Shown here piece after piece: positions 54,682 through 55,064 of a DNA stretch of 64,000 nucleotides. The notes under the pieces were generated by a model, which was not told the origin of the DNA, made no database searches, and worked only from the letters and a program-made list of their open reading frames with translations. Source of the DNA: Escherichia coli (GTDB lineage Bacteria > Pseudomonadota > Gammaproteobacteria > Enterobacterales > Enterobacteriaceae); the NCBI RefSeq assembly GCF_046105845.1, contig NZ_CP151004.1; one strand, 5' to 3'. Position numbers and translations under genes: made by a program. The first letter of the stretch is position 1. Each line of letters starts with the position of its first letter.

Positions 54682-54718
54682 ACCGCGCAATAAAAAAGCC
54701 CCCGGAAGGTGATCTTCC
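54682..54718 (-). terminator. his attenuator terminator hairpin
   Basis: On the minus strand GAAAGCCCCCGGAAG-ATCAC-CTTCCGGGGGCTTTTTT, a G/C-rich stem plus U-run between hisL and hisG. Confidence 0.85.
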
Positions 54719-54788
54719 GGGGGCTTTCTCATGCGTTCATGCACCACTGGAAGATCTGAATGTCTTCCAGCACACATCGCCTGAAAGA

Positions 54789-54839
54789 CTAGTCAGGATG
54801 ATGGTGATGATGGTGGTGTTTAAATTGAACGCGTGTCAT
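54789..54839 (-). CDS. hisL: his operon leader peptide
   Basis: Minus-strand ATG ACA CGC GTT CAA TTT AAA CAC CAC CAT CAT CAC CAT CAT CCT GAC TAG = MTRVQFKHHHHHHHPD, seven consecutive His codons. Confidence 0.95.
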   Translation of the reverse strand: MTRVQFKHHHHHHHPD

Positions 54840-54877
54840 AAAAGTCTCTGTGAATGTTTATTCAACTGATGTCTTTT

Positions 54878-54907
54878 AACCTAAACCACTTTCACGTTAG
54901 AAAGCAA
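54878..54907 (-). promoter_or_regulatory. Candidate his promoter (-35 TTGCTT, -10 TAGGTT, 18-bp spacer)
   Basis: Minus-strand TTGCTTtctaacgtgaaagtggtTTAGGTTaaaag about 40 bp upstream of hisL; hexamers read by eye, not scored. Confidence 0.45.
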
Positions 54908-55064
54908 GGGCTTTTTTATATATTTTATGGCGATGGATTTGTTTAATGAATGAGCGGGGCAAGGTGGGTGCCTGGAGTGACTACGTTAGAAAAGAAATCG
55001 TGAAAATATGTCTTTAAAACCCTCAAGAACATTGTGTTCTGTAACTAAAGTGGGCTTTGTTCCT

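Follow-up and report, generated by a model that had tools for sequence, protein, structure and literature searches.

Attenuation of the his operon has been a textbook case since 1978–1980. The model of the Salmonella his attenuator, with its RNA segments A–F, reportedly goes back to Johnston, Barnes, Chumley, Bossi and Roth in 1980, and activation of the his promoter by ppGpp is said to have been described by Riggs et al. in 1986. The response of the operon to charged tRNA is known for both E. coli K-12 and Salmonella (PMC10989985, PMC3896937), and its attenuation has been summarised (PMC3896937). The leader holds seven histidine codons, and stalling of the ribosome in the leader leads to deattenuation (PMC10989985).

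The window analysed here, a 64,000-nt stretch of DNA from E. coli, contains at 54682–54910, on the minus strand, the ordinary, intact his operon leader and attenuator of this species. The sequence elements of ribosome-mediated his attenuation are all found here in intact form, and the description of the region as textbook attenuation in an earlier note on this DNA is supported by identity to K-12, RefSeq annotation, Rfam and the competing hairpins. Classical ribosome-mediated attenuation is almost certainly the best explanation of the region, and the analysis found no evidence that contradicts this reading. When compared with the hisL/his attenuator of K-12 MG1655 (b2018; RF00514), the window shows no difference between 54931 and 54648, a span that takes in the promoter, the leader and the attenuator, and across 54635–54960 the two sequences differ solely at 54647, 54932 and 54960. 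The 16-amino acid peptide, the five pairings, the terminator and the operon are likewise shared with K-12. The control region is therefore already known: it is the reference form, identical to that of K-12, and offers nothing new for biology. Position 54647, which lies four bases ahead of the start codon of hisG, is G here and C in K-12. G is the commoner base in E. coli, the 61-mer of the window being found exactly in 3477 of 5409 genomes, and its candidacy as a regulatory variant was rejected on the grounds that it is the majority allele. A 701-base query found matches in 5423 of 5426 complete E. coli genomes, where the RefSeq features underlying the match are hisL, 'His leader region', hisG and yeeZ. 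Of these 5423 genomes, 5198 carry the 222-nt control region with an identity of 99% or more.

The Rfam model RF00514 (His_leader) matches 54690–54813 (minus) over its full length (positions 1–126 of 126) with 131.6 bits against a gathering score of 49 (E = 5.3e-23). Further, the folding of the whole leader (−70.4 kcal/mol, z = −8.15) lies far beyond chance. Weaker Rfam matches over the terminator, namely RcsR1, NsiR1, ctRNA, microRNA models and Thr_leader (22.8 bits against a threshold of 55), all fell below their gathering scores and were rejected; they arise because the G/C terminator hairpin is symmetric. A partial His_leader match was also seen on the plus strand at 54689–54729 (31.9 bits, under the gathering score), which is explained by an A-rich run (GAGAAAG) flanking the attenuator hairpin upstream. 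Read on the plus strand, the hairpin has a tail of just CUUUCUC, and it has no plus-strand gene running towards it; for these two reasons a bidirectional terminator role is unlikely.

Upstream of the leader gene lies the primary his promoter (hisLp or hisp1; 54878–54928, minus), recognised by its identity to K-12 and its conservation across genera. Its elements are a −35 hexamer TTGCTT (54907–54902), an 18-nt spacer and a −10 hexamer TAGGTT (54883–54878), an assignment that we take to be that of Riggs et al. 1986. An A/T-rich tract lies upstream of the −35 element at about 54928–54911 (minus). The earlier note had listed a candidate promoter in this region and given no hexamer coordinates. The K-12-identical promoter does lie inside the span, although as a match to the consensus it is poor: each hexamer agrees with sigma-70 at 3/6 positions. 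A sigma-70 consensus scan did not report the his promoter, since matches of just 3/6 per hexamer fall below the scan rule. Across 64 distinct Enterobacteriaceae upstream sequences, CTTGC and TTTAGGTTAA are near-invariant and the spacer between them is variable; conservation of both elements around a free spacer is the footprint that would be expected of a real promoter.

Transcription probably starts at about 54872–54870 (minus). Counted from 54872 to its end in the U-run, the leader would be 180 nt long, the same length as the his leader RNA of 180 nt described previously (PMC10989985). Between the start and the hisL ribosome-binding site, the folding of transcript prefixes predicts a small 5′-UTR hairpin, UGAAU-AAAC-AUUCA (54851–54864, minus), whose arms are conserved and whose loop is variable across Enterobacteriaceae genera. 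This hairpin has no role within the classical A–F attenuation model. It overlaps the region named rDnaA boxes 1/2 (PMC10989985), and might either protect the 5′ end of the mRNA or form part of that region.

The leader peptide gene hisL (54789–54839, minus) comprises 16 sense codons and a TAG stop and would encode MTRVQFKHHHHHHHPD. It runs from the ATG at 54839 to the TAG at 54791–54789 (ATG ACA CGC GTT CAA TTT AAA CAC CAC CAT CAT CAC CAT CAT CCT GAC TAG), and a weak Shine–Dalgarno-like GAGA (54848–54845, minus) is located 5 nt upstream of the ATG. The 16-codon leader with seven His codons that the earlier note placed at 54789–54839 is exact in its coordinates, and the translation of the ORF agrees. 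In the RefSeq annotation of near-identical genomes, the ORF is named 'his operon leader peptide'. It is a short leader ORF, predicted to be translated, that precedes the first biosynthetic gene and shares its strand, and its tandem His codons match the product of the downstream operon, the hisGDCBHAFI genes. The seven consecutive His codons (54798–54818, minus; CAC CAC CAT CAT CAC CAT CAT) would serve to sense the charging of His-tRNA. Seven CAY codons in a row are found only once in the 64-kb window and in 0/100 dinucleotide-preserving shuffles. The length of the run differs in Trabulsiella odontotermitis TbOT1.10, where hisL (L060, about 1295–1345, minus) has ten consecutive His codons rather than seven; the extra codons come from an in-frame 9-nt duplication of the CACCATCAT type, and the remaining attenuator is unchanged.

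Downstream of and overlapping the His codons, five hairpins overlap one another, each more stable than its own shuffles, and neighbours share nucleotides. The A:B hairpin (protector or pause hairpin; 54771–54806, minus) folds with −11.7 kcal/mol (z = −2.5), and its core, CCUGA...UCAGG, is located at 54797–54780 (minus). The B:C hairpin (54762–54789, minus; −10.6 kcal/mol, z = −3.3) makes up the first half of the antiterminating conformation. The C:D hairpin, formed by CUGGAAGA and UCUUCCAG, spans 54747–54770 (minus; −9.9 kcal/mol, z = −3.2). The antiterminator proper is the D:E pairing (54710–54756, minus; −16.9 kcal/mol, z = −3.9), in which GAUCUUCC (54756–54749) pairs with GGAAGAUC (54718–54711), with extra G-C pairs up to 54724. 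D:E shares nucleotides with the 5′ arm of the terminator: it occupies 54724–54711 of that arm and sequesters 11 nt.

The fifth hairpin, E:F, is the intrinsic terminator. Together with its U-tract it spans 54689–54727 (minus) and is located between hisL and the first structural gene, hisG, beginning 62 bases past the hisL stop codon. Its 14-bp stem and 5-nt loop are made up of the 5′ arm AAAGCCCCCGGAAG (54727–54714), the loop AUCAC (54713–54709) and the 3′ arm CUUCCGGGGGCUUU (54708–54695), with the uridine tract UUUUUUAUU at 54698–54690 (minus). This matches the his attenuator described previously, a 14-bp stem with a 5-nt loop (PMC10989985). Alone, the hairpin folds with −26.9 kcal/mol (z = −6.6 against shuffles), and it is covered by positions 87–126 of the Rfam His_leader model. 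The earlier note was right that a G/C-rich hairpin with a U-run is present here, but the coordinates it gave, 54682–54718, are shifted: the hairpin is 54727–54695, so that the earlier span lacks nine bases at the start of the 5′ arm and overshoots the U-tract by ~8 nt. A consensus terminator scan did not report the his attenuator, probably because the stem extends via A-U and G-U pairs into the T-run and leaves too few T for the scan. That the consensus scan reported neither promoter nor terminator does not count against either element.

The presence of mutually exclusive hairpins, on which the earlier note had made its reading depend, was confirmed: B:C and D:E draw on nucleotides that A:B, C:D and E:F also need. 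The folding of the transcript, which it had proposed as the check, gave a divided answer. The fold of the whole transcript shows the terminator only, and the check taken literally would thus have been misleading; the alternatives emerge only from the folding of prefixes in which the His codons are masked. At equilibrium, the full 188-nt transcript forms the terminator with a probability of 0.999 under every ribosome mask. Thermodynamics by itself thus reveals no switch; the switch would be kinetic, and the argument depends on the co-transcriptional order of events. This order was approximated by folding growing transcript prefixes with ribosome footprint masks. Under a mask on the His codons, the fold of lowest energy is B:C for prefixes that end at 54761–54753, and B:C together with D:E for the prefix that ends at 54708; in prefixes ending at 54723–54714 the minimum-energy fold retains C:D, not B:C. 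Prefixes without a ribosome form A:B and C:D, and E stays unpaired until F completes the E:F terminator. With the mask on the stop codon, C:D forms and then E:F. These model folds support the order of events in the attenuation model without proving it. For the identical sequence of K-12 and Salmonella, selection of the conformation by the position of the ribosome on the His codons is established by experiment.

The same leader carries a predicted his-type pause site. The hisL pause is marked by a hairpin at −30 to −11 and by the consensus G−10 Y−1 G+1 (PMC9291695). Here, G 54778, U 54769 and G 54768 fit this consensus, and the A:B core ends 11 nt before U 54769, which places the hairpin at −30 to −11. 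The A:B core followed by CGAUGUGUGCU and then G fits the his pause of PMC9291695. On these sequence features, the leader has the marks of a class I (hairpin-stabilised) his-type pause, and the 3′ end of the paused RNA would be at U 54769, before G 54768.

Based on the classical model, the region would operate as follows. Transcription would start from the his promoter at about 54872 (minus), and RNA polymerase would transcribe hisL and pause after A:B (3′ end at about 54769) until a ribosome arrives. When charged His-tRNA is scarce, the ribosome would stall in the His codons at 54818–54798 and cover segment A, leaving B to pair with C and D with E. The 5′ arm of the terminator would then already be occupied by the time F and the U-run are made, and transcription would read through into hisGDCBHAFI. 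When His-tRNA is plentiful, the ribosome would reach the TAG at 54791–54789 and cover B; C:D would form, E would be free, E:F would form, and termination in the U-run would release a leader RNA of about 180 nt. Without any translation, A:B, C:D and E:F would form, again with termination as the outcome. In either case B would be engaged, by A or by the ribosome at the stop, which would let C:D form and leave E for F. The in vivo response to His-tRNA, the pause, the exact start and the stimulation by ppGpp are expected here by analogy, being carried over from work on the identical K-12 and Salmonella systems.

The gene that the attenuator precedes is hisG (ATP phosphoribosyltransferase; 53744–54643, minus), the first structural gene, with 900 nt and 299 amino acids; its product matches TIGR00070 with 193 bits and TIGR03455 with 114 bits. 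The claim that the true hisG start is the internal ATG at 54643 holds: RefSeq has the same start, and a conserved Shine–Dalgarno sequence GAGG (54656–54653) stands 9 nt upstream of it. The Shine–Dalgarno sequence and the ATG are conserved throughout the related species, and in more than 25 of these in-frame stops occur 1–11 codons upstream of the ATG, with no alternative start. The wording that the hisG ORF runs into the terminator had to be corrected. The mechanical ORF start, TTG 54682, is 8 nt past the last U of the tract (54690) and abuts the hairpin without entering it. The hisG ATG is 45 nt beyond the U-run of the terminator, a distance that is the same in all genera examined. Downstream, the hisGDCBHAFI operon is complete, with hisD, C, B, H, A, F and IE extending down to 47610. 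The mechanical hisD ORF (52434–53747, minus) has a GTG start that overlaps the end of hisG; in related genomes, the hisD start is annotated a few codons further in. Past the operon, wzzB (O-antigen chain-length determinant; 46478–47512, plus) is convergent with it, an arrangement known from E. coli.

The value of these results is one of annotation. They place the window at the his locus of the E. coli chromosome, fix the hisG start at 54643 and mark the 16-codon hisL, which ORF callers miss.

Conservation across the Enterobacteriaceae bears on which part of the leader is under selection. A scan of one genome per species for the exact pattern of seven CAY codons followed by CCN GAY TAR found 76 hisL loci in about 25 genera, among them Escherichia, Salmonella, Citrobacter, Enterobacter, the Klebsiella group, Kluyvera, Kosakonia and Leclercia. 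In an alignment of 56 distinct leaders, whose breadth is limited by their all having been selected by the motif HHHHHHHPD plus stop, the five pairings of both conformations are kept (92–100% per helix). All 12 pairs of A:B are present in 56/56 leaders (100% paired), and the 11 pairs of B:C and the eight pairs of C:D are likewise 100% paired. In D:E, 99.4% of cells are paired, and each pair of the 14-bp E:F core is kept in 55–56 of the 56 leaders. Invariant columns are concentrated in the arms (B arm 19/19, D arm 13/14), in contrast to the C:D loop (0/6), the terminator loop (0/6) and the sequence downstream of the U-run (0/12). Among the arm positions one alone varies, an A/G site of segment C that aligns with position 54766 of the window; as it faces U in both C:D and B:C, both conformations tolerate the change. 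A covariation test of both conformations over the 56 leaders found no pair changed on both sides, and shuffle controls equalled the observed values. The test is uninformative because the arms are invariant, and the comparative support consists of conservation only, read from the contrast between invariant arms and variable loops, spacers and flanks. At the N-terminus of hisL the codons vary, yet past its stop codon the arms of the RNA do not; what is under selection is therefore the RNA together with the His codons, rather than a peptide with a function of its own.

A different account of the same leader has been drawn from work on DnaA. According to this account, binding of DnaA to rDnaA boxes in the leader RNA (a 'DnaA-dependent riboswitch') mainly controls attenuation, and the ribosome serves for deattenuation only. 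In E. coli, transcription of the his structural genes is altered in dnaA mutants, and HisL-SL RNA immunoprecipitates with DnaA (PMC10989985). As the leader is identical to that of K-12, any DnaA sites reported there are present here too, and the conserved CAUUCA motif of the 5′ UTR falls in the rDnaA box region. However, the proposed rDnaA boxes have two mismatches each to the DNA consensus, and the authors themselves write that DnaA 'might' bind (PMC10989985). Further, as judged from the aligned leaders, conservation of the arms is fully explained by the pairing of each arm with two partners, without any call on DnaA. The account also adds to classical attenuation rather than replacing it. 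We consider it unlikely that DnaA is the main controller of attenuation at this locus. A broader proposal gives the leader a role beyond the sensing of His-tRNA in cis, either as a target of DnaA (PMC10989985) or with the abundant terminated RNA of 180 nt acting in trans as an sRNA. The 5′-UTR hairpin UGAAU-N4-AUUCA (54864–54851) could be part of such a function, but we regard the proposal itself as very unlikely.

More remote from classical attenuation is the suggestion that the hairpin and U-run terminate a stand-alone small gene or sRNA, with hisG served by a promoter of its own and the His run being a feature of the peptide. The terminated leader of about 180 nt is indeed a discrete RNA species (PMC10989985), and a promoter might in principle fit into the 45 nt that separate hisG from the U-run. 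However, no promoter-like site was found at 54689–54643 by the consensus scan, which also missed the his promoter. A stand-alone gene also leaves the 99.4% conservation of a D:E antiterminator that overlaps the terminator to be accounted for, as well as peptide codons that vary at the N-terminus next to RNA arms that do not vary past the stop, and a hisG that follows at 45 nt in every genus examined. This reading is scarcely credible. Chance association of a His-rich short ORF with an unrelated hairpin can be dismissed outright, with the seven-CAY run in 0/100 shuffles, a fold z of −8.15, an Rfam E of 5e-23 and 76 conserved loci in about 25 genera. The small-gene and chance readings were excluded on the Rfam match, the fold z, the promoter scan, the conservation and the shuffles.

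The surroundings of the leader differ from K-12 more than the leader itself. In K-12 the yefM-yoeB cassette is the neighbour of the his promoter region, and it is missing from this strain. The space from yeeZ to the his promoter region is taken up here by an unannotated 217-bp segment (54972–55188), whose K-12 counterpart is 658 bp long and holds yefM-yoeB, a toxin-antitoxin gene pair, with its promoter. Homology with K-12 stops at 55189 and is regained at 54971. The segment was found in 1198 of 5426 complete E. coli genomes and is therefore a common alternative arrangement. Two REP-like palindromic units can be recognised in it by eye, at 55063–55100 (containing GCCGGATGCGGAGTGAATGCCTTATCTGGTCTACA) and 55131–55170 (TGTAGGACTGATAAGCGGAGCGCATCAGGCA), inverted as in a BIME-like pair.

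Beyond E. coli, the Salmonella enterica his attenuator has the same leader peptide, the same A–F arms and the same logic as the locus described here. In the aligned leaders of Salmonella arizonae and diarizonae, the only differences are in the terminator loop, at a wobble position or two, and in the sequence past the U-run. The U-run consists of eight uninterrupted U in Salmonella and of UUUUUUAUU here, and the Salmonella sequence downstream of the terminator is unrelated to that in the window. The enterobacterial trp, phe, leu, thr, ilv and pheST attenuators belong to the same mechanism class as his, with a tandem-codon leader ORF, a pause hairpin and mutually exclusive antiterminator and terminator as their common traits. 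Leader attenuators of the his and trp type require no regulatory protein. These other attenuators differ from his in amino acid and in sequence. The his operon is without a repressor, unlike trp, and whereas the trp leader has only two Trp codons and four segments (1–4), the his leader has seven codons and six segments.
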